From contig NIVC01000952.1 in assembly GCA_002269645.1 (NCBI GenBank), positions 524,967 through 588,966 on the forward strand: a stretch of 64,000 nt of DNA, in the 5' to 3' direction. The DNA comes from Macrostomum lignano. Its lineage: Eukaryota. Position 1 is the stretch's first letter; the number at the start of each line of letters is the position of its first letter. Below the pieces are notes generated by a model. The model was not told the origin of the DNA. It made no database searches and saw nothing but the letters and a program-made list of their open reading frames with translations. A program made the position numbers and the translations under genes. Positions 2,782-42,200 of this stretch are shown here, piece by piece.

Positions 2782-3637
2782 TGTAGAGTGTTCTACCTCC
2801 CGTTAAAAAAGGAAAAAAGAAGATAATCGTATAATACTACTATAAGTAAGTAAGTACACGCATGTGCGCCTAAGCTTTGAATGAATCACGCTACCAGAAA
2901 AAGATGTTACCAGAATAATACGCCATGAGCCATTTTCCCCTTTTAGCGCAACACGTGAATTGTCATGATACTATTTTGGATCAAAAACTTGTCTATAAAT
3001 ACAAGCGATCTGAAGCGGTACCGGAGCCATTCTCCCCACGGAAGAGGAGCGCTCCGAAGAGGAAGCCTTAGGAGGACTTCCTGATATACCAAGTCAATCG
3101 AGACTCGGTCGAGTTGTTGCGGTAAGCCTTCCTTATTTGCGCCGTTGTGTTAGAGACGTCTCGCTCAAGTCTATTGAGACTTGAGTCTATTTGAGTCTGT
3201 TGAGACTCTTGAGTCTGTTTAGACTCCATTGGTTGCAGTCTCCAGAAGGACTGCCCCTGATAGATCTTAGAGGACTATCTGTGGTTTCCGGAGCTATACC
3301 TAGAGTGCATAGAGGCACTGCTAGAAGAAGGAGGCTTAATTTAGACCGCAGTTTGGCGCAGGGATCCCACTGTTAATTCGGAAGCTTCCCATTGGTCCGA
3401 GCGACAGAATCCGGCCGGAACTATTTGAAGAAGAAAGAAGAATCGGACCCGATCTACAAACGAAAGTCAGAAGTGACTATACGAGAGCAACTGAAGACAA
3501 TCGAGAACTACTCCGAGAGATCTCCAAAGGACTCAAGGTAATTGAATACCTTCTGTTGACTTACTGGGTTGCCTAGCTGCTGAGCTAGAAGTGATTGTTC
3601 CTTGATTATCGAAAGTCGGGTAATAAGGAACACATCA
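2782..3637 (+). repeat. 5' LTR (856 bp)
   Basis: TGTAGAGTG...AACACATCA, identical by eye to 12511-13366. TATA-like TATAAATA near 2995. Confidence 0.97.
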
Positions 3638-3639
3638 AT

Positions 3640-3650
3640 TGGTGATCTCG
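3640..3650 (+). promoter_or_regulatory. Primer-binding site, tRNA-Trp-like
   Basis: TGGTGATCTCG starts 2 nt after the LTR. It resembles the TGGTGACCCCG complement of the tRNA-Trp 3' end with two G:U wobbles; the tRNA identity is tentative. Confidence 0.65.
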
Positions 3651-4352
3651 CCCTCTCGGCACTACTCAAACCTTGAGCAATAGCCTGGCCAAGCTATTGT
3701 AAAGTGACGACAGAGCGACTTCATTAATTTTGCGCGCACGTGTTAGAGTTAACACTTTTCAAGTCCGTACGTTTTGAAACTCGAGTAAAAAATTTTGGTG
3801 TACAGGTTTGAGCACCTGTCAAATTTGAGTACAGTTTGAGCACGCGTGTTAAATTTTGTTTTAACGAGCTCGAGCAAGTGTGAGTTAAAATAAAACTGAA
3901 ATTAAATTCATCGGTACACTGAAAACAAACCGAAAATAAAAGAATCGTCGACGCAAAACAAACAAAAAAATAACGGAAACATTTTGCCGGCACAAAAAAC
4001 TAAAACCGAAATTAATTGAAACTTCGTGAAGAGCGGAGTTAAGTGACAAAAGAGAGAGAGTCAAAGAAGAAAAAAAAAAAGAATTTGCAAAGCAAGAAGA
4101 CAAGTCCATCCTAACTTGAAGATACACTTTGCGGGACGCCGCATAAGTGCGAAATCAGCAAGCGAACAGAACAAGTTCATTTGAGGACAACCAGTGGCAG
4201 CAAGCCACACCGCATCCGAGGCCAGCGAATAACAAATCGACACCACAAGACAATTCGTTACAGTCGAGGTTTATTCCGAGGCAAACACCACACTGGACGA
4301 TCCGTTACAAATCGATCCAGATCTTGAACTACCGTTCTATCCTATCAACAAC

Positions 4353-5201
4353 ATGGCGCGGCGCAATCCAACGGTACACAGAGACATCAAAGAAACGGTC
4401 GGTACCTTCTCGATGGAGAAAGATTTTAACACATTTGTCGACCACTTTGACCTGGTATGTAGGGAATACAACCTACAAAATCCAGAGAAGGCACAGCTGC
4501 TGCCACCTCTTCTCCAAGGTACTGCGCGAGAAATTTACGGCAAGCTGGATGCAGCAACACAGCAAAATTATCCAGCACTAATCATTCAACTGCGCGCGCA
4601 TTTCAACCGTTGCGGCACAAACAGATCAGTGCTGCTGCACAAGTTACATAACAGAAGGATGCAAGCAACAGAATCCTTCCTCGCCTTTGTGGACGATATC
4701 CGCCAGATAATTAAGGCACTGCATCAGCCACCGCTGCAAGCTGCGGACCAACCGCCACTGGGAGCGGCAGAATTGGCCGCCAGAGAAAGACAACGATTGA
4801 TGGATCGCGAACAAAACCTCATCCTGCACGTAATAAACAACGCACAGCCGTCACTTCGGGATAGACTTTTGCGTGAAAATATCGAAACCGAAGAAGACCT
4901 TTTGCGGTGCGGAATGCAGTGGGAAGCCAGTGCCCCATTAATGACGACAGGCAACAATGAAGTGCAGAAACTGACGCAGCAACTAAACAAGTTAATGCAG
5001 CACCAGACAGCTGCTATCGCCGAACAAAAAAGACGAAATGAACAAGCCCAGCCAGATGTTACTACTGCGGACAAGAAGGACATTATCAGATTAATTGTCC
5101 TCATTGGTCAACAAGATACGACAAGCCGCGACAGATATTCAACAATCAGAAGCCGCAGAAACCATGGCAGCAATATCAAAATCGCCAACAACAAAGCATA
5201 A
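4353..5201 (+). CDS. gag: Gag capsid region; the real Gag continues in the -1 frame from ~5050
   Basis: Gag-like helical ORF (FSMEKDFNTFVDHFDLVCREYNL...LLQGTAREIY...MQATESFLAFVDDI). A CCHC knuckle follows in the next frame. Confidence 0.9.
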   Translation: MARRNPTVHRDIKETVGTFSMEKDFNTFVDHFDLVCREYNLQNPEKAQLLPPLLQGTAREIYGKLDAATQQNYPALIIQLRAHFNRCGTNRSVLLHKLHNRRMQATESFLAFVDDIRQIIKALHQPPLQAADQPPLGAAELAARERQRLMDREQNLILHVINNAQPSLRDRLLRENIETEEDLLRCGMQWEASAPLMTTGNNEVQKLTQQLNKLMQHQTAAIAEQKRRNEQAQPDVTTADKKDIIRLIVLIGQQDTTSRDRYSTIRSRRNHGSNIKIANNKA

Positions 5202-6574
5202 GACGCGTCGGAAATGATAGACGCTTCGGAAATAATGACCGCTCCGGAAATGATGGCCGCTTCGGAAACGAAGGCCGCTTCAGAAATAATGGCTACAGGC
5301 CACGCAATGCCAGGTACGCACAAAGACAGCCAACGCAAGCAATGCCACGATACGCGAATGCCATCACGTACACACCGGAAAATGAGCAGCAGGAACAGCA
5401 AGTGTTCACAATTGACGACTTGGAAATGGACTTCACAGTCCCGGAACTTGACATCAGCTTGATCGAAAAGAAGACGACGCACGAGGACAACACTGACAAC
5501 ACAGAAGAGGCGAATGAAACCGAAATGATCGAATTAAAAGAGACCACCGGAGACAGCAGAGAAAACAGGAAGAAAGTAAATCACAAGAAAAGGGAGGAGA
5601 CGGAGAGCGACACCGGCAACGAAGAAAAGATGAAGACTGGCAGAGAAAACAACTATGAATCGACAACAGTGGATGACGAAAAAACAAGCACGAAAGACAA
5701 AGAAATGAAGGAAGAAGAAGAATGTATAAGTTGCGGCAACGATCACGACTGCGAAGTGCATGATGATACGAATGGATACCGAGCCGAAGAAGGAATGCAG
5801 GAAGAACTGAGAGCGGAAAATCTAAGTTCCGACAGCGATCAAGGCTACGAAATACAATGGAAAGATGAAGAAATGGAAAAAGAACAAATGAAAGAAAAGC
5901 CGAGTTCCGACAGCGACGAATGCTACGAGATCCGATACAAACGAAATGGTGAAGCCTATATTCAAACGGTCGACTACAAGGCAGAGAAAAGATACCAAAC
6001 GCAATGGAGTGAAACAACGGAAACATCGGAAGAAGCTACAGACGAAGATACTGAAATAACCAAAGAGCAAAGCAAATCAGAAGCCTTCCGCCTGAATCAG
6101 CCAATGGAACAACCGAAAGAATACGATGCGGACATGGAGGATAACGAATGGCAATCGCAGCCAATGCCAGCAAAGACAACGGCAAGGTCCAAGAAGTGGA
6201 AAAACTGGCTGCTCTGGATCATCGTGATACTACTGATAGCAGTAGTCGCCAAAGCAACGGCAATGGAGAAACCAATGATATGTCCAACGGATGCGCATAT
6301 CCAACCAATGATCTACAAGATACCAACCGACATCAAATGCAGCTACTTCAAGACAAACCAGACGAAGCCAAAGAAGATCACAATTGATCTCTACAAAGCT
6401 AACATCAAGAAGCATCGACAACTCGGAATAGTGTGCTTTAGAGACAAGCACCTAGTGGAAAAAGTTTGGCGAGGACAGTGGAACAGAATTCGATTTTGGC
6501 AACACGAACACATGTGTCGCACGCTGAATGTCTACAATGGAACCAAACACTGTTCTCAAAGGATGGTCAGCTAG
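5048..6574 (+). CDS. Gag zinc knuckle, R-x-G-N repeats, acidic spacer, Env signal peptide and Env N-terminus
   Basis: CYYCGQEGHYQINC at 5057-5098 is in frame with ORF 5342..6574. Five 18-nt repeats at 5204-5293. KKWKNWLLWIIVILLIAVVAKATA at 6191-6262, then MICP...KC. Confidence 0.85.
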   Translation, partial: PARCYYCGQEGHYQINCPHWSTRYDKPRQIFNNQKPQKPWQQYQNRQQQSIRRVGNDRRFGNNDRSGNDGRFGNEGRFRNNGYRPRNARYAQRQPTQAMPRYANAITYTPENEQQEQQVFTIDDLEMDFTVPELDISLIEKKTTHEDNTDNTEEANETEMIELKETTGDSRENRKKVNHKKREETESDTGNEEKMKTGRENNYESTTVDDEKTSTKDKEMKEEEECISCGNDHDCEVHDDTNGYRAEEGMQEELRAENLSSDSDQGYEIQWKDEEMEKEQMKEKPSSDSDECYEIRYKRNGEAYIQTVDYKAEKRYQTQWSETTETSEEATDEDTEITKEQSKSEAFRLNQPMEQPKEYDADMEDNEWQSQPMPAKTTARSKKWKNWLLWIIVILLIAVVAKATAMEKPMICPTDAHIQPMIYKIPTDIKCSYFKTNQTKPKKITIDLYKANIKKHRQLGIVCFRDKHLVEKVWRGQWNRIRFWQHEHMCRTLNVYNGTKHCSQRMVS

Positions 6575-8055
6575 AACCGGATGAGAAAGTGGGGGAGGCA
6601 CAACTTTACCGAACGAAGAACTCAGCAAACGGACGATATGTACACTTTTCGGAAGCATGGACTAACTACATGACACGAAACAGTTACCTAATCAGGAATA
6701 TTCCATTCTATCACAATCCTTTTGAAAAAATGGAGTCGCTACAACTGCAATTAAGCGACTGCCGATACAGCAAAGGATGGTGTCCAACACCAATTCTACG
6801 GAAGGAAGAATTACACAGTCTACCACTGAGTCCAACATATCATCAAAACTATCGATGGCAGATTGAGCACAGAGCACACTCACACTATGAGGAACCGTAC
6901 AAGTCACGACAATATTTCTTCGCATGGGAAGTAGAGCCGGAAATTGACTGCAAGCTTCAAAAGTATCACACAGTGGAAGGAGGACTACTGTCGAATACAT
7001 TTTTGGCAAAAGCAGGAGACTTGGCCTTGACGTTTCAAAAGAAGCCGGACGAACAAGAACTCAAATGCAAGAATACGGACAAGACGCTGTTCATCTCGGA
7101 GCAAGAAATACCAGTCTATGTAAAGGATGGTGACAAACAAACCTTCCTGGCAATCATAAACGGAACATATCAGCAACAAGAAAGACAGCGACGCGACATA
7201 GAACGTCCACGATTGGTGTCGAACCGACTACTGTCAGCAAAGATCACGGCTTTAGATCACAATCTGCATAACCAGCTAAATCACCTACATCGATCACTGG
7301 TTCAGTTAACTTGCAAGATGCACGCAATCAACTTGAACTACGCAAGACAAAACTACTATGTCAACCCTACGATGACATTTCGCAAGATCACTGGAATGAG
7401 AGAGGTTCTGGCAATTCCGATATATGGACATCTCCTGATATACAAGTGCACGCCGATACAGCACTTCAACATCTTGCCGTCGAATACTTCAACAACTTGC
7501 TACGACAAGCCGAGAATTGAAGCATTCTACGAAGGCAAAAGGATCCAAGGATTCTTGGACACGGTACACAACATTATCGTTGGCACCGCCATACCAAGAC
7601 CGTGCACCACGGCAGCAAACTACTATCAACTGGACAATGCACTACACGTCATCAAAACAACTGGAACGACAGCAAACGTCACAGAACCGGAAGTAATCGT
7701 CGACGAAAACTACGACATGGAGGATTTGAAAATCCGATTCAACAGAACGAAGTATACGCCATTCGCCGATATCCAACTTGACGAGATAACACCAGGATGG
7801 ACGATCAACGACTTCTTGCAAGCGTTCATCACCCAACGTAAGATGATTCACCAGCTGTTCACAAGAAAGGACAAAGGAACCGGGACAGGAAGATTTCCCG
7901 TCCTTGTTTCAATGGACAGCGCCATCAAATCATTTTGGACAAATAGCTTCTGGGAGCTGCTCAATGGAAGAGGCAGTCTCTATCAAGGATTCATCTTCTA
8001 CGGTGCTTGCATTGTGTGGATTGTCACGGCAATCTTCATCATTTCATCGATCGTA
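6191..8055 (+). CDS. env: Envelope glycoprotein, class III (gB-like), with one -1 break in the 6466-6574 overlap
   Basis: Signal peptide; Cys-rich ectodomain; six N-glycosylation sequons (NQT x2, NGT, NTS, NVT, NRT); furin site RQRR at 7183-7194; gB-like helix ...CKMHAINLNYARQNYYVNP...KC...CYDKP; TM at 7990-8055. Confidence 0.8.
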
Positions 8056-10881
8056 CGGTGCTTCAGTCAAACTTGTCCAAGAGCTAAGAAGACAGTGAAT
8101 GCCATAATGCAAAGAACGACAACGGAAAGCGACAACAGTTTAGAACTAACAGAAACTGCACATTGTGAGGTTCAAGGGCAACCGACACTAGCAACGCGGC
8201 TATATCCATCGATTCCGACAACACCAACGGCACCAAGGATACAACCACCCAACTATCAAGCAGAACAGCACGAGCCAAAATGGCCGGAAAACTACGTCTG
8301 TACGCTACACGCCGAGATTGGCAAAGCAATGGCTCAGGTCATTGTCAACAACTTGCCATGTCGAGCACTACTGGATTCAGGCAGCTCGATCACAGTCATC
8401 TCGCAACAATTATGCAACAAGCTACGACTCGCGGTACGACCAGCAGCAATCGCAGTTGCAGGAGCAGGAGGACATTCACTCAACATCCTAGGAAAAGCAG
8501 ATATCGACTTGAAAATTGCTAATAAACAGCTGACGGTCCCGACGTACATCATCGACAGACTACCAAACCAAGACGTCATCGTTGGAATCGACACGTTCAA
8601 GCAGCTTCAACTACCATTGACCTTCGACTTCAACAAGCAAACGTTTAGGATCGACACGGTGGAGCAACCGCTGATCAACCAGATTCGAGTACTACCGAAA
8701 GTAACTCTGCAGCAAGATGTCATTATCCAGCCTGAAAGCGCATGCTGGGTCAGAGCGAAAACGACCAGCGCGGCAGATGAAGCAATGATATTTGATCCAC
8801 ACAGGAGAGTCACGGCAAAACATCAAATCATGATGCCTACGGCACTAGTGCTGGTTGCAAAGGATAAGCAACTGCCAGTACAAATCTTCAACCCGAACAC
8901 AGAAACGGTTCATCTACGACAAGGAATGTGCATCGGTCATCTCAACACCCAAGCATCGGTTATGCTGATTGAACAAGCGACTCCACGACTAACAGAGGAA
9001 GAATTTCAAAAGAAGATCAATTTGGATGACAGCCCGATTACGGAACAGCAAAAGAGGAAAGTTCGACAGCTGTTGTGGAAGTACAACGAAGCCTTCTGCC
9101 ATCATGATTACGACATCGGACGAGCCAAGGACATCAAACAGGAAATCAAACTTCTGCCGCACACGGAACCAATTCAGTGCAAGCCGTACCCGATCGCCAA
9201 GCATCTGCAACAACACTTTGACGAAATCATCGATAAAATGCTAAAGCACGGCATCATCAGCAAAGCTATTTCGGCTTACTCCTCACCGTGCCTACTGGTA
9301 CAGAAGAAGGAGACAAACGAAAGACGACTCGTATGCGACTTCAGACTGTTGAACAAGTACATACCGACGGATCAGCAAAGCCTACCGAAGATCTCCGAAC
9401 TACTAGCAAAGCTCAACACGGCAAAATTGTTCACGGTGTTCGACCTACGTCATGGATTTTGGCAAATTGAAATCGAGAAAGAGTCACGACAGTACACGGC
9501 TTTCAAAACCTACAATGGACAAGTATACGAGTACAATCGATCGCCGATGGGACTCAGCAACAGCCCAGCAACGATGAGCCGACTAACAGCATACATGCTT
9601 GCAGGATGCACGAACCTGTTGCACTATGTTGACGACATCTTGGCCCACGGAGAAGACTTCGAACGACTCTATGAAGCGACGGAGAAGGCCCTCGCGCTTA
9701 TACAACGTCAAGGTCTGAAGCTACAACCAACTAAATGCAAATTCTTCCGAGACAACGTGCGTTACCTGGGACATCAGGTGACAGCCAAAGGAATCTCACC
9801 GGACCCAGACAACGTGGAAAAGGTGAAGAAGTTTCCTACGCCAACCAGTATAACGAAGGTCCAATCATTCCTTGGACTTGCGCAATACTTCAGGAAGTTC
9901 TTACCTAACTTCGCAAAGACAGCAAAGCCACTGTACGACCTGCTCAAGTTCGACAAATGGAAGCAAGACAACTGGACACAGAGACAACAGGAAAGTTTCG
10001 ACGAAATCAAACGACAGCTGACATCAGACGCACTGCTACAGCATCCGGACTTCGACAAGCCCTTCATCATCGAGACAGACGCCTCAGGAACGGGACTCGG
10101 AGCAGTCCTACTACAGGAAACCGAGGACAAGAAGGAACGACCTATTGCTTACGTCAGTCGAGCACTCAAACCAAATGAGACAAAGTGGTCAGCTACGGAA
10201 CGAGAGCTACTAGGAGTCTTGTTCGCCCTGCGACAGTTTCATTACTACATCTATGGTTCTCCAATACAGACGATAGTACGCACGGATCATGCACCATTGA
10301 CCTACGTCGTAACTACAAAAGGACAGACCAACAACCGACTCATCAGGATGACACTCAAGATCCAGGATTACAACTACAAACTCGTCTACAAACCAGGAAT
10401 TACCAACAAAGCCGCGGACGCCCTGTCAAGAGCCTATGAAGTCAACGCCATTCATCCAATCCCTAACATCAAGGAGTTGGTGGATGAAACCGAGCGCGAC
10501 AACTTCTACCAAGCGGTTAAAGACGACGACAAGAACATCCAACTCAGCCCCATGGAACGAAAATTCCTACGCAAGCAACGACAACACCTAACAATCAATA
10601 AGTCACGGCTCTACTGGATGAGCGACAATAAACCCAAGATCTACGTACCATATTCGTTTCGGCAAGCAATCTCAACGAGCTGCACGACAACCCACTCGCT
10701 GGACACCTGTCGGCCGCAAAGACCATCGCGAGAGTGGAACAATACTACTTTTGGCCAACTATGTACGGCGACATCAAGCAGTATTGCAACAACTGCCATT
10801 CATGTGCTGCATCAAAGACAGGACGACGACAGAAACCGCAGCTACAGTCCATTCCGAAGTCGACTACAATGGACTGTCTAA
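6466..10881 (+). CDS. pol: Env C-terminal part fused in frame to Pol (aspartic protease, RT, RNase H)
   Basis: LLDSGS protease (D at 8374), YVDD RT (9625-9636), ETDASG...ELL...TDH RNase H, all in the same frame as the furin site and TM. Confidence 0.95.
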   Translation: MARTVEQNSILATRTHVSHAECLQWNQTLFSKDGQLEPDEKVGEAQLYRTKNSANGRYVHFSEAWTNYMTRNSYLIRNIPFYHNPFEKMESLQLQLSDCRYSKGWCPTPILRKEELHSLPLSPTYHQNYRWQIEHRAHSHYEEPYKSRQYFFAWEVEPEIDCKLQKYHTVEGGLLSNTFLAKAGDLALTFQKKPDEQELKCKNTDKTLFISEQEIPVYVKDGDKQTFLAIINGTYQQQERQRRDIERPRLVSNRLLSAKITALDHNLHNQLNHLHRSLVQLTCKMHAINLNYARQNYYVNPTMTFRKITGMREVLAIPIYGHLLIYKCTPIQHFNILPSNTSTTCYDKPRIEAFYEGKRIQGFLDTVHNIIVGTAIPRPCTTAANYYQLDNALHVIKTTGTTANVTEPEVIVDENYDMEDLKIRFNRTKYTPFADIQLDEITPGWTINDFLQAFITQRKMIHQLFTRKDKGTGTGRFPVLVSMDSAIKSFWTNSFWELLNGRGSLYQGFIFYGACIVWIVTAIFIISSIVRCFSQTCPRAKKTVNAIMQRTTTESDNSLELTETAHCEVQGQPTLATRLYPSIPTTPTAPRIQPPNYQAEQHEPKWPENYVCTLHAEIGKAMAQVIVNNLPCRALLDSGSSITVISQQLCNKLRLAVRPAAIAVAGAGGHSLNILGKADIDLKIANKQLTVPTYIIDRLPNQDVIVGIDTFKQLQLPLTFDFNKQTFRIDTVEQPLINQIRVLPKVTLQQDVIIQPESACWVRAKTTSAADEAMIFDPHRRVTAKHQIMMPTALVLVAKDKQLPVQIFNPNTETVHLRQGMCIGHLNTQASVMLIEQATPRLTEEEFQKKINLDDSPITEQQKRKVRQLLWKYNEAFCHHDYDIGRAKDIKQEIKLLPHTEPIQCKPYPIAKHLQQHFDEIIDKMLKHGIISKAISAYSSPCLLVQKKETNERRLVCDFRLLNKYIPTDQQSLPKISELLAKLNTAKLFTVFDLRHGFWQIEIEKESRQYTAFKTYNGQVYEYNRSPMGLSNSPATMSRLTAYMLAGCTNLLHYVDDILAHGEDFERLYEATEKALALIQRQGLKLQPTKCKFFRDNVRYLGHQVTAKGISPDPDNVEKVKKFPTPTSITKVQSFLGLAQYFRKFLPNFAKTAKPLYDLLKFDKWKQDNWTQRQQESFDEIKRQLTSDALLQHPDFDKPFIIETDASGTGLGAVLLQETEDKKERPIAYVSRALKPNETKWSATERELLGVLFALRQFHYYIYGSPIQTIVRTDHAPLTYVVTTKGQTNNRLIRMTLKIQDYNYKLVYKPGITNKAADALSRAYEVNAIHPIPNIKELVDETERDNFYQAVKDDDKNIQLSPMERKFLRKQRQHLTINKSRLYWMSDNKPKIYVPYSFRQAISTSCTTTHSLDTCRPQRPSREWNNTTFGQLCTATSSSIATTAIHVLHQRQDDDRNRSYSPFRSRLQWTV

Positions 10882-11835
10882 GCATCGACATCACCGGACC
10901 ACTGCCACCGAGCTGTCTCCAGGGCATCGCCTACACCTACATTCTAACCGCCTTGGATATCTTCTCGAAGTTTGCTATCGCCATACCGATACCGGACATC
11001 ACAGCTCAGGCAGTGGCAGTGAGTTTCTTCAACGAAATATTTGCAAGTACGGCACGCCGAAGAACCTCACATCGGACAACGGATCGCAGTTTACATCGCA
11101 ACTGTTTCAGCAAGTCGTAAGGATTCTCAACATTACGCAGATCTACACATCGACCTACAATCCGAAGGCAAACATGGTTGAACGGTTTCACCGCAACCTG
11201 CACGAGATGATTACACATTTCGCGCACCAACAGCCGGAAGACTGGATCATCTACCTGCAATCTGTAACAATGGCCTACAACAGCGCTATTCATCGATCAA
11301 CGGACAATACGCCATTCTTCCTAATGTTTGGACGAGACTTCCAACGCCGAATCTGCTCGCACAGCAATTGCTACCATCGCAGTACGTGGAAGTACCGACT
11401 TCCATTCAGAAATTCGTCACGCAACTACACCTCGCATGGAAGATCGCCAAGCACAACATTGACAACCAGGTGGCTCTGACCACCGGCAACGACGCGAGAT
11501 CGACAACCCTGACGGCCGGCGACATCGTTTACCTACACTACCCGCCGCAGCAGACGCATAAACATGCACAGAAGTATAAAGGACCCTATCGAGTGGTCCA
11601 ACTAACGTCACCGACAACGGCACGCCTGGCTAATGTACAAGATCCACATCAGCACCAGTTCTACGTACACATTCATCGACTAAAGAAGATCAACACTGAC
11701 ACCGCGACGTTTCTACCGACATTAGACAACGCTGATCGCACGCGTTCAACGAACCGCCACATCGCGACGAAGCACGAGGAGACTCAAACGACAGATGTGA
11801 GCCAGCCACATGGCTACAACCTACGACCACGCTAG
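10671..11835 (+). CDS. pol: Integrase (HHCC, DDE, GPY), broken by three single-base gaps
   Basis: LHDNPLAGH...CNNCHSC, SIDITGP, SDNGSQF, VERFHR, KGPYRV. Gaps at ~10671 (c/cc), ~11041 (ttt/tttt) and ~11343 (aa/aaa). Confidence 0.92.
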
Positions 11836-11955
11836 AGTTTCGAGAGCAACCCCGTGTAGTGACCGGGATAAAGAATAGCACTACAGCTTCGCAAGCTTGT
11901 CGTAAAAGGCGACTAATCCGAGCGACACAAAGACAGCGACAAATTGGCAACAATT

Positions 11956-12330
11956 ATGGGCAACGCACTGTCGAAACAGGCGCCCCAGCCTCAGCAGCTA
12001 TATGACTGCCCGATATGTTTAACTGATGACTTGGCTGTCAAGCCACCGACTATTTGCATCAACGAACATAAAGTTTGCGGACAATGTTTAAGCGATTCAC
12101 ATTATATTCAGCCATGGCAGAATTGTCCCCTCTGTAGAGATAGTTTGCGACAATGTGCCTATTGTTATTCTTGGCGCACGTTTCAATATTGTAACCACCA
12201 ACATTTTATTTGCATGCACTGTTTGAAGCAAACCGCTAGTAGGGGCGTTATAGGATGCCCCTTATGTAATAGTATGCCGCGAGACTGCACGTTTCGAAAG
12301 TGGTGTCGGATCAAACCTGATGCCACTTGA
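11956..12330 (+). CDS. Accessory protein with an N-myristoylation motif and two tandem C3HC4 RING-like fingers (124 aa)
   Basis: MGNALS...; CPIC-x12-C-x3-H-x2-C-x2-C-x12-CPLC; CAYC-x8-C-x3-H-x2-C-x2-C-x11-CPLC. It lies between the integrase stop and the PPT. Confidence 0.85.
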   Translation: MGNALSKQAPQPQQLYDCPICLTDDLAVKPPTICINEHKVCGQCLSDSHYIQPWQNCPLCRDSLRQCAYCYSWRTFQYCNHQHFICMHCLKQTASRGVIGCPLCNSMPRDCTFRKWCRIKPDAT

Positions 12331-12495
12331 TGTCTACGCGATATTCGAGTTTTGACCGCAATATGTACTGAAAAGTTTTTAGAGTTTTGACCAAACCCTC
12401 GCTTCACTAGACGCGCACAAAATCAATTGTTTATTTCCTATATTAACTGATCACCACAGAATTTTATTGTTAAAACTCGGGACGAGTTTTTTCGT

Positions 12496-12507
12496 AAAAA
12501 AGGGAGA
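12496..12507 (+). promoter_or_regulatory. Polypurine tract
   Basis: AAAAAAGGGAGA, 3 nt before the 3' LTR. Confidence 0.85.
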
Positions 12508-12510
12508 TTT

Positions 12511-13366
12511 TGTAGAGTGTTCTACCTCCCGTTAAAAAAGGAAAAAAGAAGATAATCGTATAATACTACTATAAGTAAGTAAGTACACGCATGTGCGCCT
12601 AAGCTTTGAATGAATCACGCTACCAGAAAAAGATGTTACCAGAATAATACGCCATGAGCCATTTTCCCCTTTTAGCGCAACACGTGAATTGTCATGATAC
12701 TATTTTGGATCAAAAACTTGTCTATAAATACAAGCGATCTGAAGCGGTACCGGAGCCATTCTCCCCACGGAAGAGGAGCGCTCCGAAGAGGAAGCCTTAG
12801 GAGGACTTCCTGATATACCAAGTCAATCGAGACTCGGTCGAGTTGTTGCGGTAAGCCTTCCTTATTTGCGCCGTTGTGTTAGAGACGTCTCGCTCAAGTC
12901 TATTGAGACTTGAGTCTATTTGAGTCTGTTGAGACTCTTGAGTCTGTTTAGACTCCATTGGTTGCAGTCTCCAGAAGGACTGCCCCTGATAGATCTTAGA
13001 GGACTATCTGTGGTTTCCGGAGCTATACCTAGAGTGCATAGAGGCACTGCTAGAAGAAGGAGGCTTAATTTAGACCGCAGTTTGGCGCAGGGATCCCACT
13101 GTTAATTCGGAAGCTTCCCATTGGTCCGAGCGACAGAATCCGGCCGGAACTATTTGAAGAAGAAAGAAGAATCGGACCCGATCTACAAACGAAAGTCAGA
13201 AGTGACTATACGAGAGCAACTGAAGACAATCGAGAACTACTCCGAGAGATCTCCAAAGGACTCAAGGTAATTGAATACCTTCTGTTGACTTACTGGGTTG
13301 CCTAGCTGCTGAGCTAGAAGTGATTGTTCCTTGATTATCGAAAGTCGGGTAATAAGGAACACATCA
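12511..13366 (+). repeat. 3' LTR (856 bp)
   Basis: Same sequence as 2782-3637, followed by TGCA. Confidence 0.97.
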
Positions 13367-13494: not shown

Positions 13495-13581
13495 CTGTTC
13501 AAGTCAGGGGGTTGGTGAAATTTTATGTAAAAGCACTGAGATTGAAGGCTACCCGCAGTATTTATGCAAATGAGCACCCAC

Positions 13582-14664
13582 GTTAAGAAGCATATACATT
13601 CGAACGTCTTCGACCAGACTATCGTGCATGTCTTGCAGCTCGCACTTCACAATGTCTCCGCTGATGTAAGCAGACGGTGCCGAGTAATTGAGGCTGGAGT
13701 TCACATGAATGTCGCACACCGAGTCAGTGGACTTCAGCAACGGTTTCACTCTCAAGTAAACAGCCGTGCATCTGTCCGAGGCGCAGAAGATGTTCCGCTG
13801 CAGCAGCTCGACCTCTATGGGCATTTCGTCTCGTCTGGCGATCTCAAACTCGCAGCTGGGACCCCAGAACCCGTGGACACACGTGCATTCACCGCTAAAA
13901 CATTGGCCTCTACCTGAGCAGTTTGCTGGGCACAGATCATCGACCAGAGCTTCAATCTTGCTGGAGTTTCCCAACACCGCGGTTGCGTTGTATGTCATTT
14001 CAGTGTAGCACATGCCCAGCATCGAGTTGAACAGGGACTGTGTTGAGTCGAATGTTCCAAGCACAGTGGCGTACTGAGCACAAATCACTTTGAACTGACT
14101 AATGTAATCTGCTTGACCGGTGGGATCTTTCACTTGAGCACAGATCTCAGTGCTAACGGACTTGCTCAACTGAAGCTGCACGAACGTGTTGCAGAACTCA
14201 TCGGCCTCCTGCTGTGAAATTTCCCGAGTCTGAATCTGTCGTATGGGTTCGATTTGTGATTTCAATACCGTCTGTGCAGCTTCTCTTCTGTCTCGTCTTG
14301 TATTTTCAAGGGAAACAAAGCAATTGCTTCTGGTCATTTGGGCATCGTTGCAGGTGCAGATGCCAAGAATTTCGGTCGGCTGCATTCTGGAAAATTCGCA
14401 GACCTTCGGCATCTCGTAGAATGAGTGAAATAAACTTTTTGATGAATCTGCGATCGGCTCCCTTTGCGTTCCAAATATTAAACCATCGACTAAATTTTGT
14501 GTATCGTAAAATCCTGACACAATCATCAAATCCAAGGCAATACGATCGCCGATTTTGACCACGTACATGTATCCCTTGCAGGCCGAATCTGTTTCGAAGT
14601 TTCTCATACTTTCGCTATTCATGACAAAGCTATACAGACGGAGCTGCCCATCGAAAAGGCCCAA
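13582..14664 (-). CDS. VWD/EGF-domain (VWDE-like) extracellular protein, large exon; 5' boundary uncertain
   Basis: 371-aa ORF with a VWD-like segment (VKIGDRIALDLMIVSG...DGLIFG), a Cys-rich region and an EGF motif CPANCSGRGQCFSGECTCVHGFWGPSC. Donor AAC|gtgggt. Confidence 0.7.
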
Positions 14665-14902
14665 ACATGGAGAATAGTTCCATACAGATCGAACTGAACT
14701 TTCATTGCAGCTCCAACATTCTCTACCTTAACTCCAAATGGTAGTCAATCGGGCTTAATCGGAAGAGTTCGCTTCTGTTCACCTTTGGGTGGCAAATATT
14801 TAATTTTGGATAGTTCCTGAAGAGCTGCTACCACAAATTCGGATAATATAGTAGAAGTATCTTATTGCTATCTCAGTTGCATACCAGTTCTTGCCATCCA
14901 TC

Positions 14903-15297
14903 CTGTCCGTCAAAAGTTCCGGAACCCTTGCTACGATGTCTTCTAGCGGACATAATTTCAGTCCGTTTCAATTGTAACTTGATTCAAATGAAAGCTGCGG
15001 ATCTCAGCTCCATGATGTGGTCAAGAAAAAGTTTATTCGAAGGAGCGCGTGTGAAAAATGTGAACAGGCCAGTGTTTGTTCAATTGCTTGTTTGTCTTTT
15101 CCTCACTTTTTTTCTCTAACCTTTATGTACATAACACTGGCCTGTTCACACGCGCTCCTTCGAATAAACTTTTTCTTGACCACATCATGGAGCTGAGATC
15201 CGCAGCTTTCATTTGAATCAAGTTACAATTGAAACGGACTGAAATTATGTCCGCTAGAAGACATCGTAGCAAGGGTTCCGGAACTTTTGACGGACAG
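14903..15297. mobile_element. Foldback/MITE-like element with ~170-bp inverted arms
   Basis: 14903-15076 is the reverse complement of 15133-15297 apart from a 9-nt insertion in the left arm. Spacer is 56 nt; TSD not clear. Confidence 0.8.
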
Positions 15298-16489
15298 TAT
15301 ACATTCATCTGTATTTCGTATGGAAGCATCTTATGATATAGGAGAGTCTAATGACCATGGTGGATTTTGTCCTATAGCTCGGCTCAATTTCAGTTAAGAG
15401 GCCTCGAACTCGAACGAAATCAAATCGATAGTCGGAGGGATTCGAAGAGAGACGGATTCTAATCAAGCCACTAGCTTGCACTGTGACTAGGCCCAAATTC
15501 AAATGCACTGGAGCCGAAGATGCGCATACAGGCCCGGAGGTTTTATGTCTTTGCACTTAAATAAGCCCCGTATTTCCGCCCGCGATTGCACCCTAAAGCA
15601 GACTTGGGGGCTGGTATAGTTTGTGTCCACTGGAACAATTTTTGTCCTTGAGTAAGACACTTAGCTCTGCATTGCTTCAGTTCACCCAGCATTAGCTGGT
15701 TGGTTTAATTGGGTGTGTGCTTGGCGACCACCCAGTCCCTGGACTGAACAGCCGTACGAAGCCTTCAGATGCACCGCGCAATGGCTGGGGCTGAGCTGTC
15801 GGTTGCACTTACAAAGCCTCCAACAGCTCGTGGTGGCACTGAATCCGATCAAGAATTTTAAACTTTTGAGCCGGTTTAACGTCTGCACATGTTTTGCAGA
15901 TGGTCGTGGATTGCGTTTGCCTTATTGCAGTGTTCGTCCATCCTGGTGTACAGGTGACTATCAGTCTTACCGCTGGCTCTGCTTAGCAGGGTACGTGGAG
16001 GGAACTTTGCTTTTTAGGCGCGTTACAAAATTGGCTACTTTTAAGTTAGTATTGAAGCTATCATGAATGCGCATAAGATGGTATACGTCGTGAATTAGAA
16101 AATATATTATATCAAATAATCTAAATATACTAAATCTTCTACTATACTATTATACGAATTCATATAACTTACTCAATAGTGCATGCATTTAATAATGTAT
16201 TGATATAATAATAAAATTTCTAAAGTGAAGTAGCATCTGTAAACAGTTTTAGGACCTGAATATATGTATCAACTATATGGGGGGTTAATCCGCGGCTAAT
16301 CCGCTGTTAAGTCCGCGGTTAATCCACCGCCTGCGTTGGTAAAGCGCTCGCTCGATTCTAAACAAAACCAAAACAACGAAAAAGAATCGTTGGTAGCAAG
16401 GGAAGGGAAGGAAGCGCTAATTAAAGCTTAATAAATCGCAATCCATGCAGAAATTGCAGAAATAGTTCCAAATTGGAGGGATGCTGATC

Positions 16490-23450: not shown

Positions 23451-25043
23451 TAAAAACTAGAATAAAATGGACTGCAGCGCAACAAAGCGCGCTTTGATGG
23501 CCTTGAAGTGTCTGAAGTGTCTATCGCCCCCTTCCATGCACGCCCCCTATCCATGAGCAGCAACGTGCACGTACATGTATCCATTATCCAGCTAGAGGAC
23601 ACAGAAGACATGGAGACATGACCATACGGACTAGAGGCCAATTTATTCCGTCCCAGCCACACAATCAACTTTCACTTTATGTTCACTTTCATTTCGAGGG
23701 AAAATGTCCGGAGGAGAATGTCCAAAGGGGAATGTACGGAAGGAGAAATGCCGGAGGGGAAACGCACCTAGAGGACATTCTGTTTCTCAAGATTCACCTG
23801 AGGGCAGTTAGCTGGTTAGAGAGCTCGTGTCTACTTGTATCTATGTAATATTTTAGAAGTATTAATTGGAGTAATCGAATTAAATAATTCACCTCTATCA
23901 TGGTGGAACACTTAAACAATTGAACATTGCCTTAGTCTGCAGCCACCTGGCTTGACCCGCATGAAACCCACATGGCTCAGCCAATGACTTTAACTGTATT
24001 GCTCAGGTTGCCGTATTGCTCAGGTAAATCAGCGCCAAGCATTAATAAACACAGCAGCCAGTCTGCATCAGCTCTGCCTCAGCTTTCTCAACTGTCTGCG
24101 CCGAAATCCTTGAGCATGGAGGCTCTCTGCTCAGCCATCGCAATCTGTTCGTATTACGCAGGGTGCCGAGAAGACTCAGCGATTGGGAACCAATTTGAAG
24201 CCTTCGTTACTCCAGGAAATTTCAAATGCAAAACGGAGGTCACATCACATCGGGCTTCGAGTCGCAAGACTGCGTCTCTGCTTTTGGTACTTGAACACTC
24301 TTCCTGGCTTCGAAGTTTTCAGCTGCACACTTACGAGTATTTGTTTTGCAGCGCAGATATCCTAATCTGCAGCCTGTCTTCGAACTACAGCCGGCTCCAT
24401 TCCCTGCGGAATTCTCATCAAAGACATTTATTGCGACTAACCAAGCAATAGATGTGAAAGCAACGAGTGCGAATGTCACAAGCTTTTCTCAGACTAAATT
24501 TGCATTCGAGTACTGGGCAATCAGCAGCCACAGAACAGGTGCGAATTTTCAGTGCAGCTTCCAGATTTTCAAGTGTTCGCAGAGAAGCGACTCGTCAAAC
24601 CTGAACTGAGCTCTGCAGCTCCGACTTTAAAAAGGGATGTTCATTTAAGTCGGTGCAAAATCAAATATTTTAATGCTTATTTAAACAAAATTGACTACCT
24701 ACATTCAGTATACGCTCGCATATGATTTAGGGAGAAATTCTGAAATCTCTGAATAAATTAATTGACAGATTTTGCTCAGCCAGGCAGTTGCTTTGTGCCT
24801 CAAAATTTCTATTGCAATTAGGACTGGAACCATAAGAAGACAGTTTAAGAAAGTCAGCATTTTAGAAACTTATTTAAACAAATGCCATCAGCTAAGTAGC
24901 TGACGTACTTTTTAAAACACGATTTTATTTCGCAAATTCTAAAACTAATTGGTGATGTAAAACAAACAAACACGAAATTATTTGCGGATCGGCGGCTTCC
25001 AGACAGGGTTTCTTAGCTCCAGGAACCTCCAGATTGGAAGCCT

Positions 25044-26076
25044 TAGTCTCAGAGATGGGGTTTTAATAGTCTCTGAGATGGGGATTTATTAGCCTCAGAG
25101 ATGGGGATTTATTAGCCTCAGAGATAGGGATTTATTAGCCTCAGGGATGGGGATTTAATAGTCTCAGAGATGGGGATTTATTAGCCTCAGAGATAGGGAT
25201 TTATTAGCCTCAGGGATGGGGATTTAATAGTCTCAGAGATGGGGATTCATTAGCCTCAGGGATAGGGATTTATTAGCCTCAGAGATAGGGATTTATTAGC
25301 CTCAGTGATGGGGATTTAATAGTCTCAGAGATGGGGATTCATTAGCCTCAGGGATGGGGATTTAATAGTCTCAGAGATGGGGATTCATTAGCCTCAGGGA
25401 TAGGGATTTAATAGTCTCAGAGATGGGGATTCATTAGCCTCAGGGATGGGGATTTAATAGTCTCAGAGATAGGGATTTATTAGCCTCAGTGATGGGGATT
25501 TAATAGTCTCAGAGATGGGGATTCATTAGCCTCAGGGATGGGGATTTAATAGTCTCAGAGATGGGGATTCATTAGCCTCAGGGATAGGGATTTAATAGTC
25601 TCTGAGATGGGGATTTATTAGTCTCAGAGATGGGGATTTATTAGCCTCAGAGATAGGGATTTATTAGCCTCAGGGATGGGGATTTAATAGTCTCAGAGAT
25701 GGGGATTCATTAGCCTCAGGGATAGGGATTTATTAGCCTCAGAGATAGGGATTTATTAGCCTCAGGGATGGGGATTTAATAGTCTCAGATATGGGGATTC
25801 ATTAGCCTCAGGGATAGGGATTTATTAGCCTCAGAGATAGGGATTTATTAGCCTCAGGGATGGGGATTTAATAGTCTCAGAGATGGGGATTCATTAGCCT
25901 CAGGGATGGGGATTTATTAGCCTCAGAGATGGGGATTTATTAGCCTCAGGGATGGGAATTTATTAGCCTCAGAGATGGGGATTTATTAGCCTCAGAGATG
26001 GGGATTTATTAGGCTCAAGGATGGCGATTTATTAGCCTCAGGGATGGGGATTTATTAGCCTCAGAGATGGGGATTC
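25044..26076. repeat. 23-bp minisatellite (~45 units)
   Basis: Unit TCAGRGATRGGGATTTATTAGCC; period measured 25093 to 25116. Confidence 0.95.
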
Positions 26077-26112
26077 CTAAACTACCTAAGCAAAATCACA
26101 CAGAGCAAGCGC

Positions 26113-26496
26113 TCAGTCAACTGTCAACCCCGCCGACTTGGCGTACGTGAGCTCAAACAGTCGCTCAGCCGTGAGCTCCGGCTCCCCCCCGTACTTGGCC
26201 GCCCAGTCCACGTACGGCTTGAGCTGGAAGCCGGTCAGGTCGGGCACAACGAGTTCCGGCCGGGCTTCGCTGAACGCTCGACTGCCTGAGGGGCCGCCGC
26301 GAGTGGCAGCCGCGATGGCCACTCGGTCGGGCATCTCGCGCGGCACCCAAGGATTGTCGGCCCGGCGCTGGTGCTTGCGAACCGCCGTCATCCAGGCGTG
26401 GCCCTGATTTATGATTTGACAACAGCTCAAGACTTTATTTTTTTAGAGGCTGGGGGCTGTGTGCACCCTGGTGCACTTGGAGGCATTACTGCTCAT
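26113..26496 (-). CDS. MRPL41: Mitochondrial ribosomal protein mL41 (exons 26496-26467 and 26403-26113, ~106 aa)
   Basis: PELVVPDLTGFQLKPYV...LTAERLF matches the mL41 signature. Acceptor aaatcag|GGC. First exon MSSNASKCTR with a weak donor gtgcac; exon 1 is less certain. Confidence 0.85.
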
Positions 26497-39221: not shown

Positions 39222-42200
39222 CTGACGGGGGAGGTTGGGGTTGGAGTTGAGGTTGAGTCAGACTCCGCCCAGCTGATGTCACATCCCAGTCATGCGAAAA
39301 GGGTGAGGGTCACACTACAAACCTGGTGCGCAGATGGGCAGCCTGAGGCTTCAAGTTGTGGTCCCTCAGGATCTTGGCCCGCAGGCCCAGGTCCGGGTCG
39401 TCCTTGATAGCGTCCCAGCTGTCCATGCCGAACTCGTACACGCCAATCAGCAAGTTCGAGTCGTCAATCTCGTCCCACACGCAGTCCCAGGTGACAGTCT
39501 TGGTGTAGAAGGGCACCCTGTACTTCCGGCGCGCCTCCCTGTCTGCTGGCATCTCCCTGTGCAGCGGGGCGAGGTCCTTCTGCGACTGCAGCAGCGGCCG
39601 GGCCTGGATCACCACCCGGCCGAGCGTGAAGGACGGCGCGCTGGGCTTCGCCGAAGCCTCCTCGCCTGTCGCGAACGTGGCAGCCTTGGCGACGGCCCGC
39701 TCGCAGCCCTGCAGGATGGCTTCGACCAGGCGGCGGACCTCCGTCTCCGACTTCTCCTGCAGCTCCGCCTCCTCCACCACGCTGTCCAGCCGGTCCAGCG
39801 GGCTGGCGAACTTGCGCATCGCCTTGGCCAGGGCGCGGATCTCGCGGTCCGACAGCTCCTCCTCGTCCTCGGCGCCCACGTTCAGCGGCTTGACCTGCGG
39901 GGGCGTTGACATGACAAAAAGTAAGGCAAACCTGACTGAGTGTCAGACTGTCTGACTGACTGTCTGACTGACTGCCTGACTGACTGACTGACTGACTGAC
40001 TGACTGCCTGCCTGCCTGACTGCCTGACTGACTGACTGACTGACTGACTGCCTGCCTGCCTGACTGCCTGACTGACTGACTGCCTCGCTGACCTGCTTGC
40101 GCTGTCGCGGCCCCAGCTCGAGCTGCAGCAGACGCTCCTCGGCCTCCTCCTGCTCGATGCGGCGCCGACTCTCCTCGGGGATGATCTCCTCCCAGGTCTT
40201 GCTGGCCGCCGGCTCCGCTGACTGCCCGGCGGAGTCCCCGGCAGCCGTGGCCGTCGCTTGGCCTTTGCGCCTGCCGGAGGGCCCGCCGCCGGACATGATG
40301 ATCTCCGTGTCCTCAAGGTTCTCCAGGTTCACCACCTGCGGGCGGATTGGCAAAAGCAGGTTGTTAAAGAGAATCTTGATGAAAAGCTCGGCTGAGCACA
40401 TGTCTGGGTGGACAATATCCTGCTAGAGTTCGAACCAAGGACCACTGTTAGTATTATAAGAGGACGTAAAATTTTGAAGCCAGTTTCTTGAAAAAAATCC
40501 GTATTTTTACAATGCAGTTGTTTCAGGCGGATTTTACTAGTGGTCCTTGGTTCGAGTCGGAAAGCTTTTCACACTCCTAAGAACTCCCATCTCCCAAGCT
40601 CTAAGTTTGTCTATGGCTAAGGCTACGAGCATGTACAGAACGGCATAGCAACCACGAGCGACAGGTTCCAACCTTGAACTGCGACAGCAGCTCCTCGGCA
40701 GCTGCGGAGGTTGGCTGCAGCTCCTCGCGAGTCTCAGCGCTGCGCAGAATGGCGTCCAGGTCCACCTCGGCCTCGGACTCCTCGCCCTCCTTCTCGCGGA
40801 ACAGGTCTGCGGCGCCGAACTTGAGGATGGCGGACAGTTCGTCCTTGGAGAAGGCGGGGTTGCCGGCGTCGCCTGGCTGACGCAGGCGGCCCGTGGTGTC
40901 CATGCGCTGAATGACCAGATGGTCCAGCACCATCTTCTGCTTGGCCCGTTCGATGATGTCCTCCTCTACTGTGGCGCGGAGCACCAGGCGGTAGACCCGC
41001 ACCTGGCGCGTCTGGCCGATGCGGTGGCACCTGGAAAATTGGAACGGATTTGGGATGTTTAGCTTTCGGTTGAGGATGTTTAGCCTCCGGTTGAGGATGT
41101 TTAGCTTCCGGTTGGGATGTTTAGCTTCCGGTTGGGGTGCGGTTGCTTGCGTAAACTGACCGAGGCAAACTTTTGTTCAAGCATCGAAGACCCACCTGGC
41201 CATCGCCTGCAGGTCATTCTGCGGGTTCCAGTCGCTGTCGAAGATGACCACGGTGTCAGCCGAGGCTAAGTTGACGCCGAGGCCGCCAGCTCGGGTGGAC
41301 AGCAGGAAGCAGAAGTCCTGCGAACTCTCCGCATTGAAGGCGTCAAGCGCCTGTTTGCGGGCCTCGCCTAGAATGGTGCCGTCCAGTCGCTGGAAGGCCC
41401 AGTTGCGCAACGACAGGTACTCGGCCAGCACGTCCAGCATCATCACCATCTGAGAGAAGATCAGAACCCGGTGCCCGCCGGCTCGCAGATTCCACAGCAG
41501 CTTGTCCAGCAGCAACATTTTGCCCGAGCCCCTGATGAGGCTCTCCAGCCTCTCGCAGCGGTCCGTGAGCTGCGGCGGCTCCTGCACCAGAAAGGTGTGG
41601 TTGCAGCACTTTTTCAGTTCCATGATCAGGTTGAGGAAGGCGTTGGGCTTGTTCAGCATCTTGTAGTTCCTGCGGGGCGATAGGGGTTGCGGTGAGTTTT
41701 AATTCGGGCACTTATTTATGCGAGATTGTCAGGTAGGATTTTGTGAGATTCTCAGGTAGATTTATGTGAGATTCTCAGGTAGATTAATGCGAGATTGTCA
41801 GGTAGATTTATGCGAGATTGTCAGGTAGATTTATGTGAGATTCTCAGGTTGATTTATGAGAGATTCTCAGGTTGATTTATGCGAGATTCTCAGGTTGATT
41901 TATGCGAGATTCTCAGATTGATTTATGCGGGATTCTCAGGTTGATTTATGTGAGATTCTCAGGTAGATTTATGCGAGATTGTCAAGTAGATTTATGCGAG
42001 ATTGTCAGGTAGGATTTTGTGAGATTCTCAGGTTGATTTATGAGAGATTCTCAGATTGATTTATGTGAGATTCTCAGGTTGATTTATGCGGGATTCTCAG
42101 GTTGATTTATGCGGGATTCTCAGGTTGATTTATGCGGGATTCTCAGGTTGATTTATGCGGGATTCTCAGGTTGATTTATGCGAGATTCTCAGATTGATTT

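Follow-up and report, generated by a model that had tools for sequence, protein, structure and literature searches.

In retroviruses the late domains usually lie in Gag, whereas here motifs of the same types lie on the Env tail of a Ty3/gypsy element, off the Gag chain after a predicted signal cleavage. This raises the question of whether such a tail serves particle release, and whether its motifs moved there from Gag or arose in place. The element lies in a window of 64,000 nucleotides (the whole stretch of Macrostomum lignano DNA that was analysed), with the following features:

2782-13366 (+), Ty3/gypsy element, whole span, length 10585
2782-3637 (+), 5' LTR, 856 nt, TG...CA, identical to the 3' LTR
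3640-3651 (+), primer-binding site (PBS), a 12-mer shared with the Mlig_errantivirus_2 listing
4353-5098 (+), gag: capsid-like region, then a CCHC zinc knuckle at 5057-5098
6206-6262 (+), internal signal/anchor helix at the Gag-Env junction, ending in a signal-peptidase-like A-x-A; predicted cleavage
6263-7986 (+), Env ectodomain, class III, of the herpes-gB type, with a furin-like basic site at 7183-7197
7987-8055 (+), Env transmembrane (TM) helix, stop-transfer; a hydrophobic helix of predicted topology
8056-8280 (+), Env tail or Env-protease linker, proline-rich and fast-evolving, probably on the cytosolic side
8200-8214 (+), LYPSI, ALIX-type YPx(L/I) motif
8224-8235 (+), PTAP, TSG101-type motif
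8245-8256 (+), PPNY, WW/NEDD4-type PPxY motif
8281-8286 (+), conserved WP, 31 residues upstream of the catalytic Asp; candidate N-terminal cut of the protease
8287-11835 (+), pol: protease (DSGS 8374-8385), RT (YVDD 9625-9636), RNase H, integrase
11956-12330 (+), accessory RING-like ORF within the element; longer in some other copies
12511-13366 (+), 3' LTR, 856 nt, identical to the 5' LTR

The element and its family

The element is a GAG-ENV-POL gB-type Ty3/gypsy errantivirus, having LTRs, a PBS, a 4-nt target-site duplication flanking it at both ends, the order PR-RT-RH-IN and an Env between two helices. It runs from Gag with its CCHC knuckle through an acidic linker, the signal-like helix, Env, TM, tail, PR, RT, RNase H and integrase to the RING-like ORF, and the layout from Gag, signal helix, gB ectodomain, TM and tail to PR-RT-RH-IN is a single frame. 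In the window's copy there are frame breaks near 5050 (gag), 6510 (Env), and 10670, 11040 and 11340 (pol), and the motif block is held by ORF 6442-10881 (+). The gB-type identity of Env is assigned from a sequence profile: since a profile of 43 Env sequences matches herpesvirus gB chains (best E 1.7e-17), Env is classed as a class III, gB-type protein; it also matches Monjiviricetes_fusion, at a score under the curated cut-off. The basic cleavage site of this gB-like Env is conserved.

In Env searches the genome's GAG-ENV-POL elements fell into nine well-separated families, A-F and H-J; the window's element belongs to family A. In families C, D and F (L067, L069, L073) a Thr/Ser/Pro-rich, mucin-like Env insert of ~280 residues stands directly before the furin-like site. 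Family A is young: of 40 DNA matches scored, 27 have 99-100% identity and the remaining 13 have 93%, open frames of 2538 residues hold 4 of the 148 protein matches, and one Macrostomum lignano database protein has 100% identity over the protease-RT query and an identical motif block. The element is directly adjoined by a teneurin-like EGF-domain exon (13549-14727, -), a MITE-like 156-nt inverted repeat (99%) occurs at 14900-15300, and 16500-64000 contains numerous minisatellite arrays whose periods range from 14 to 55 nt (for instance 23 nt at 24900-26200 and 41600-47000).

According to the accessible part of a 2026 survey (Chary and Hayashi, eLife, PMC13524379), Mlig_errantivirus_2 (Platyhelminthes_Rhabditophora) shares ORF order, gB-type Env and the PBS 12-mer with our element, has an LTR spacing of 9727 (9729 here) and a length of 10591 (10585 here), and is listed with 16 copies. 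The two thus appear, very probably, to be the same family. Since GAG-ENV-POL gB-type elements from Nematoda, Bryozoa and Platyhelminthes are described there (PMC13524379), the element type itself is known. That part of the survey lists one such family for this species, whereas we see at least nine related ones.

Late-domain motifs in the Env tail

The block at 8200-8256 (+) reads LYPSI-PTT-PTAP-RIQ-PPNY, 19 residues in frame. The first-pass annotation had placed all three motifs within 19 residues between the Env TM and the protease, and translation agrees, with the hydrophobic helix (7987-8055) before the block and DSGS (8374-8385) after it. It had further called the linker cytosolic; here the position between TM and PR is observed, while the cytosolic side is suggested by the two hydrophobic helices and by continuity with Pol. 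Its description of the LYP motif as a variant ending in I also stands, since no strict LYPx(1-3)L occurs in this family. In this genome the I-ending is the common one (five of six YP motifs), and YPXL/I is named as an ALIX-binding motif in the title of a cited paper.

A chance origin of the block appears unlikely. Among 200,000 shuffles of the 108-residue tail, in which the YP pattern was loosened to accept 1-3 x and I or V ends, all three motif types occurred in 2 and at least two types in 273. In the comparator copy L061, whose frame runs uninterrupted for 2538 residues, P(S/T)AP, PPxY and [LIVM]YPx[LIV] are absent outside the block. The family's database gene model P0003, in which a 34-residue block is missing in frame, suggested that the motifs might be spliced out. 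No such joint was present in the contigs of any of four runs (4/4), a check made on assembled contigs, from which rare forms can drop out, and because the contigs gave no supporting joint we treat P0003 as a gene-model artefact.

Within the family, 16 distinct tail variants carry YPSI in 16, PTAP in 15 and PPxY in 16. The x of PPxY is N in five variants, T in seven, G in three and I in one, with PP and Y constant, and spacer and flank positions vary; a seventeenth variant outside the filtered set, L157, has changes at the free YP position and at two spacer residues and retains all three motifs. Alternative residues in at least two variants occur at none of 10 core positions and at 8 of 26 others (p 0.052), so that lower variability of the core than of the flanks is suggestive only.

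Comparison between families covers far greater divergence. Tail identity of family A to the other ten families and subfamilies is 22-31%, a range that includes the tail core of family B even though its ectodomain end is 61-63% identical to that of family A. P(S/T)AP is nevertheless found in seven of nine family tails (0.24 expected) and [LIVM]YPx[LIV], a pattern drawn up from these families after viewing them, in six of nine (0.10 expected). PPxY occurs in one of nine (0.41 expected) and is therefore not conserved among this genome's families. With two B subfamilies added, the counts become 8/11, 8/11 and 1/11. None of 600 shuffles within local 15-residue windows matched the P(S/T)AP or YP counts. 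In A the YP motif comes before PTAP, and in B, D, E and I it comes after; P(S/T)AP has S in some families and T in others, with different codons; no motif occurs in the tail of family J, P(S/T)AP is missing from that of family H, and subfamily B2 has PNAP. Having three motif types together is peculiar to family A among the genome's families. Since some families are kin (C-D-F, and E-H on the Env tree, with I similar), they represent fewer than nine independent events.

To extend this beyond the genome, a profile search was reduced to 150 representatives of 50%-identity clusters. Forty-eight were excluded for a missing Env end, missing TM or insufficient length, leaving 102 with a definable tail, and removal of four presumed members of this genome's families left 98 distant tails, whose hosts are mostly unrecorded. 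P(S/T)AP was present in 8 (0.97 expected), PPxY in 11 (2.0), the YP motif in 12 (1.0), strict LYPx(1-3)L in 4 (0.39) and any of the motifs in 25 (4.0); 73 of the 98 have none of the three. These counts were reached by none of 2000 shuffles, and the enrichment survives local shuffles. Reversed or reordered control motifs were rarer (0-4 in the 98 tails, except P.YP at 7). For the three main patterns, the density per 1000 residues was 0.63, 0.86 and 0.94 in tails; ectodomains had 0.13, 0.06 and 0.06, which makes the tails 5 to 15 times denser, and Pol had 0, 0.07 and 0.07. On an Env tree of 89 representatives and nine own-genome rows, the 30 carriers split 8/9, 18/37, 3/46 and 1/6 over four main groups, one large clade being mostly without tail motifs. 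Carriers thus cluster, so that the counts cannot be taken as independent events. Among the carriers is P0083, a Gag-Env protein of Caenorhabditis angaria, which terminates after its PTAP-bearing tail.

Several individual relatives deserve mention. P0053, P0061 and P0083 are Gag-Env frames that stop shortly past the motif-bearing tail with no in-frame protease. In P0011, PTAP, PPxY and YPxV overlap within ten residues, resembling the overlapped design of Ebola VP40. A further retroelement protein with Env, P0076, bears the label of a Gammaproteobacteria MAG protein, probably because animal DNA contaminated the bin.

The first-pass expectation that motifs are kept while flanks diverge is thus borne out for P(S/T)AP and YP in the genome's families and for PPxY within family A and among distant relatives; for PPxY across the genome's families it failed. 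One could still regard the motifs as chance matches in a proline-rich disordered linker, since four-letter motifs are short, the tails are rich in Pro, Thr and Ala, PPxY is at chance level over the genome's families (1/9), and [ST]APP reaches 3/9 families and 6/98 distant tails, although it overlaps P(S/T)APP. Against this, neither whole-tail nor 15-residue local shuffles ever met the observed counts, when the 12 arrangements of P,P,A,S/T are ranked the functional one comes first in both sets (genome families and distant relatives), and in PPxY variation is confined to the free position. We regard chance as very improbable. Judged by these comparisons, the tail motifs are a real, selected feature, their identity, position and selective retention being observed.

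One may also consider that the YP motif, taken alone, is not an ALIX site at all: the element's protease could cut there, at an aromatic-proline bond, or the motif could serve clathrin adaptors as a YxxPhi signal. The LYPAL of MLV spans a protease site. Among protease-bearing relatives, five of nine YP motifs lie 36-46 residues ahead of the catalytic Asp, within the WP zone (WP clusters at 31-48 residues before Asp in 13 of 21), and the generic YxxPhi without P is mildly raised in tails (80 vs 64 +/- 7). In our element, however, YP lies 58 residues before Asp, a separate WP at 31 is the better cut candidate, and several families carry both. The YP motif is also found in P0053, a Gag-Env frame ending without a protease, and the enrichment of YPxPhi (17 vs 6.0) exceeds that of generic YxxPhi, bare YP (33 vs 24) and FP (29 vs 32). 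This explanation leaves PTAP and PPxY unaccounted for, and such roles may coexist with that of a late domain; we consider it rather unlikely.

Origin of the motifs and accessory ORFs

The first-pass annotation had proposed that budding signals moved to the Env-Pol linker from Gag. As an env-less control we used 26 Ty3/gypsy pre-protease segments (19 from a database search and 7 from this genome), which represent distant and not sister groups. P(S/T)AP was found in 0/26 (0.25 expected), the YP motif in 0/26 (0.16) and PPxY in 2/26 (0.57), the first two expected counts being low. A PTAP or YP motif is present in 13 of 62 protease-bearing tails and in none of the 26 env-less segments (p 0.007). 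The linkers between NC and the signal helix in 37 Gag-Env fusions showed no motif enrichment (0, 1 and 1 of 37), which rules out late motifs at that site as a general rule; as exceptions in this linker, families B and F have PPxY and D has PSAP. With env-less elements unenriched and motif order differing between families, the proposed move finds no support, and we favour repeated origin and turnover in place. Thus, it appears that the motifs probably arose and turned over in the tail instead of moving from Gag. Searches for a stand-alone gB-type Env from GAG-POL-ENV elements gave 2 and 0 matches, with no further family in this genome.

Between integrase and 3' LTR, families A and B also have accessory ORFs, one or two per element, that encode tandem RING-like domains and are ~50% identical between the two families; the window's copy has a single, shorter one. 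Copies of these ORFs are many (L061, L063-L066, L096), some clustered on contigs C87, C1130, C2121, C272 and C4009, and they are possibly captured ubiquitin ligases. Other families have unrelated accessory ORFs of ~270-330 residues. A role like that of the myristoylated arenavirus Z protein was considered for the RING ORF and rejected: the MG start is not retained in family B, the post-pol 3' stretches of other families are without a RING ORF (three of these stretches being uninformative or interrupted), and an Atlas match to Z scored 0.87, a lead only.

Particle release or sorting of Env

The host has candidate partners for two of the three motif types. Its TSG101 UEV domain was found (E 1e-44 to the human domain) with most pocket residues retained, including the TYNIP and M95 segments; two pocket positions differ from human, which we take to be the equivalents of Y63 and F142. 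The ALIX V domain was found with its KFY segment retained, and host ALIX itself carries PSAP.

We consider it fairly probable that the Env tail carries late domains on the cytosolic side, which recruit TSG101, ALIX and a NEDD4-family ligase and so lead to release of an enveloped particle. The polyprotein would be threaded through the ER, with Gag and tail-Pol both on the cytosolic face, and signal peptidase would cut anchored Gag from Env-tail-Pol. Gag would then assemble at the membrane next to Env trimers, whose tails would bring Pol in; PTAP would engage TSG101, YPSI ALIX and PPNY a NEDD4-family ligase; ESCRT-III would sever the neck of the bud, either at the plasma membrane or at an endosome, and the protease would then release itself near the WP site. 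Lentiviral p6 or p9 sits just before the protease. The tail may take their place because the C-terminus of Gag became a membrane anchor; in sequence terms, it is the end of a Gag-containing precursor ahead of the protease, with Env inserted in front.

An alternative is that the motifs bind ESCRT and NEDD4 proteins to sort or degrade Env (endosome, multivesicular body or lysosome) without particle release, the element replicating intracellularly or from cell to cell. The tail of a membrane protein is a site of cargo-sorting signals, and the conservation data fit sorting as well as they fit budding. HSV-1 gB is ubiquitylated and sent to multivesicular bodies via its tail (PMC7995964), and ZAM particles take endosome/exosome routes (PMC3383448). 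However, P(T/S)AP, YPxL and PPxY used jointly are the pattern of budding viruses (PMC8402826), the family's Gag is without any other such motif, and an intact fusogen would be useful only on a membrane-wrapped particle. Sorting alone is, in our view, quite unlikely, and for the preferred reading, release through the tail's late domains, we infer an enveloped, extracellular particle.

That late domains exist and are used jointly is textbook knowledge (PMC8402826); MLV Gag (PSAP, LYPAL, PPPY) and HIV-1 p6 (PTAP, YPXnL) resemble our tail in using three motif classes together as position-independent modules (PMC8402826). The HSV-1 gB tail is that of a gB-class fusogen sorted via ESCRT, but ubiquitylation and not late motifs is described for it (PMC7995964), and it has no tethered polymerase. 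Drosophila gypsy and ZAM are likewise Env-bearing Ty3/gypsy elements, with a YxxL-like motif predicted in gypsy Gag; in contrast to our element, they have an F-type Env after pol and the motif in Gag (PMC3383448). In bluetongue virus, too, ESCRT is engaged from outside Gag or matrix, through NS3 with its PSAP and PPxY (PMC7995964). NS3 differs from our tail in being non-structural, in not being a fusogen and in having no tethered polymerase. NS3 is a membrane protein.

Nematode GAG-ENV-POL elements were reportedly described by Sacco in 2022, which may bear on novelty. In the open-access literature searched, and in the text of PMC13524379 as available, we found no report of late domains on a Ty3/gypsy Env tail. 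The main text of that survey, as accessible, gives no matches to ESCRT, late domain, budding, cytoplasmic or polyprotein and does not describe the tail motifs, budding appearing to lie outside its scope. A 2012 review describes it as not known whether any errantivirus relies on ESCRT, or whether env-bearing Ty3/gypsy elements make infectious particles outside insects (PMC3383448).

Tentatively, and as a possibility somewhat short of even, we propose that GAG-ENV-POL Ty3/gypsy elements are true budding viruses with a plan unlike the retroviral one, in which the polyprotein yields anchored Gag and Env-tail-Pol, the fusogen tail loads the enzymes and recruits ESCRT, and late domains arose there repeatedly and independently of retroviruses. 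Because the same tail would carry the enzymes and recruit ESCRT, only Env-bearing particles would be released under such a plan. As selected features, the late motifs of the Env tail would count as independent evidence, drawn from sequence, for budding of these elements, and they point to an exit like that of retroviruses through a different protein layout, in an element family that is actively expanding in this flatworm.
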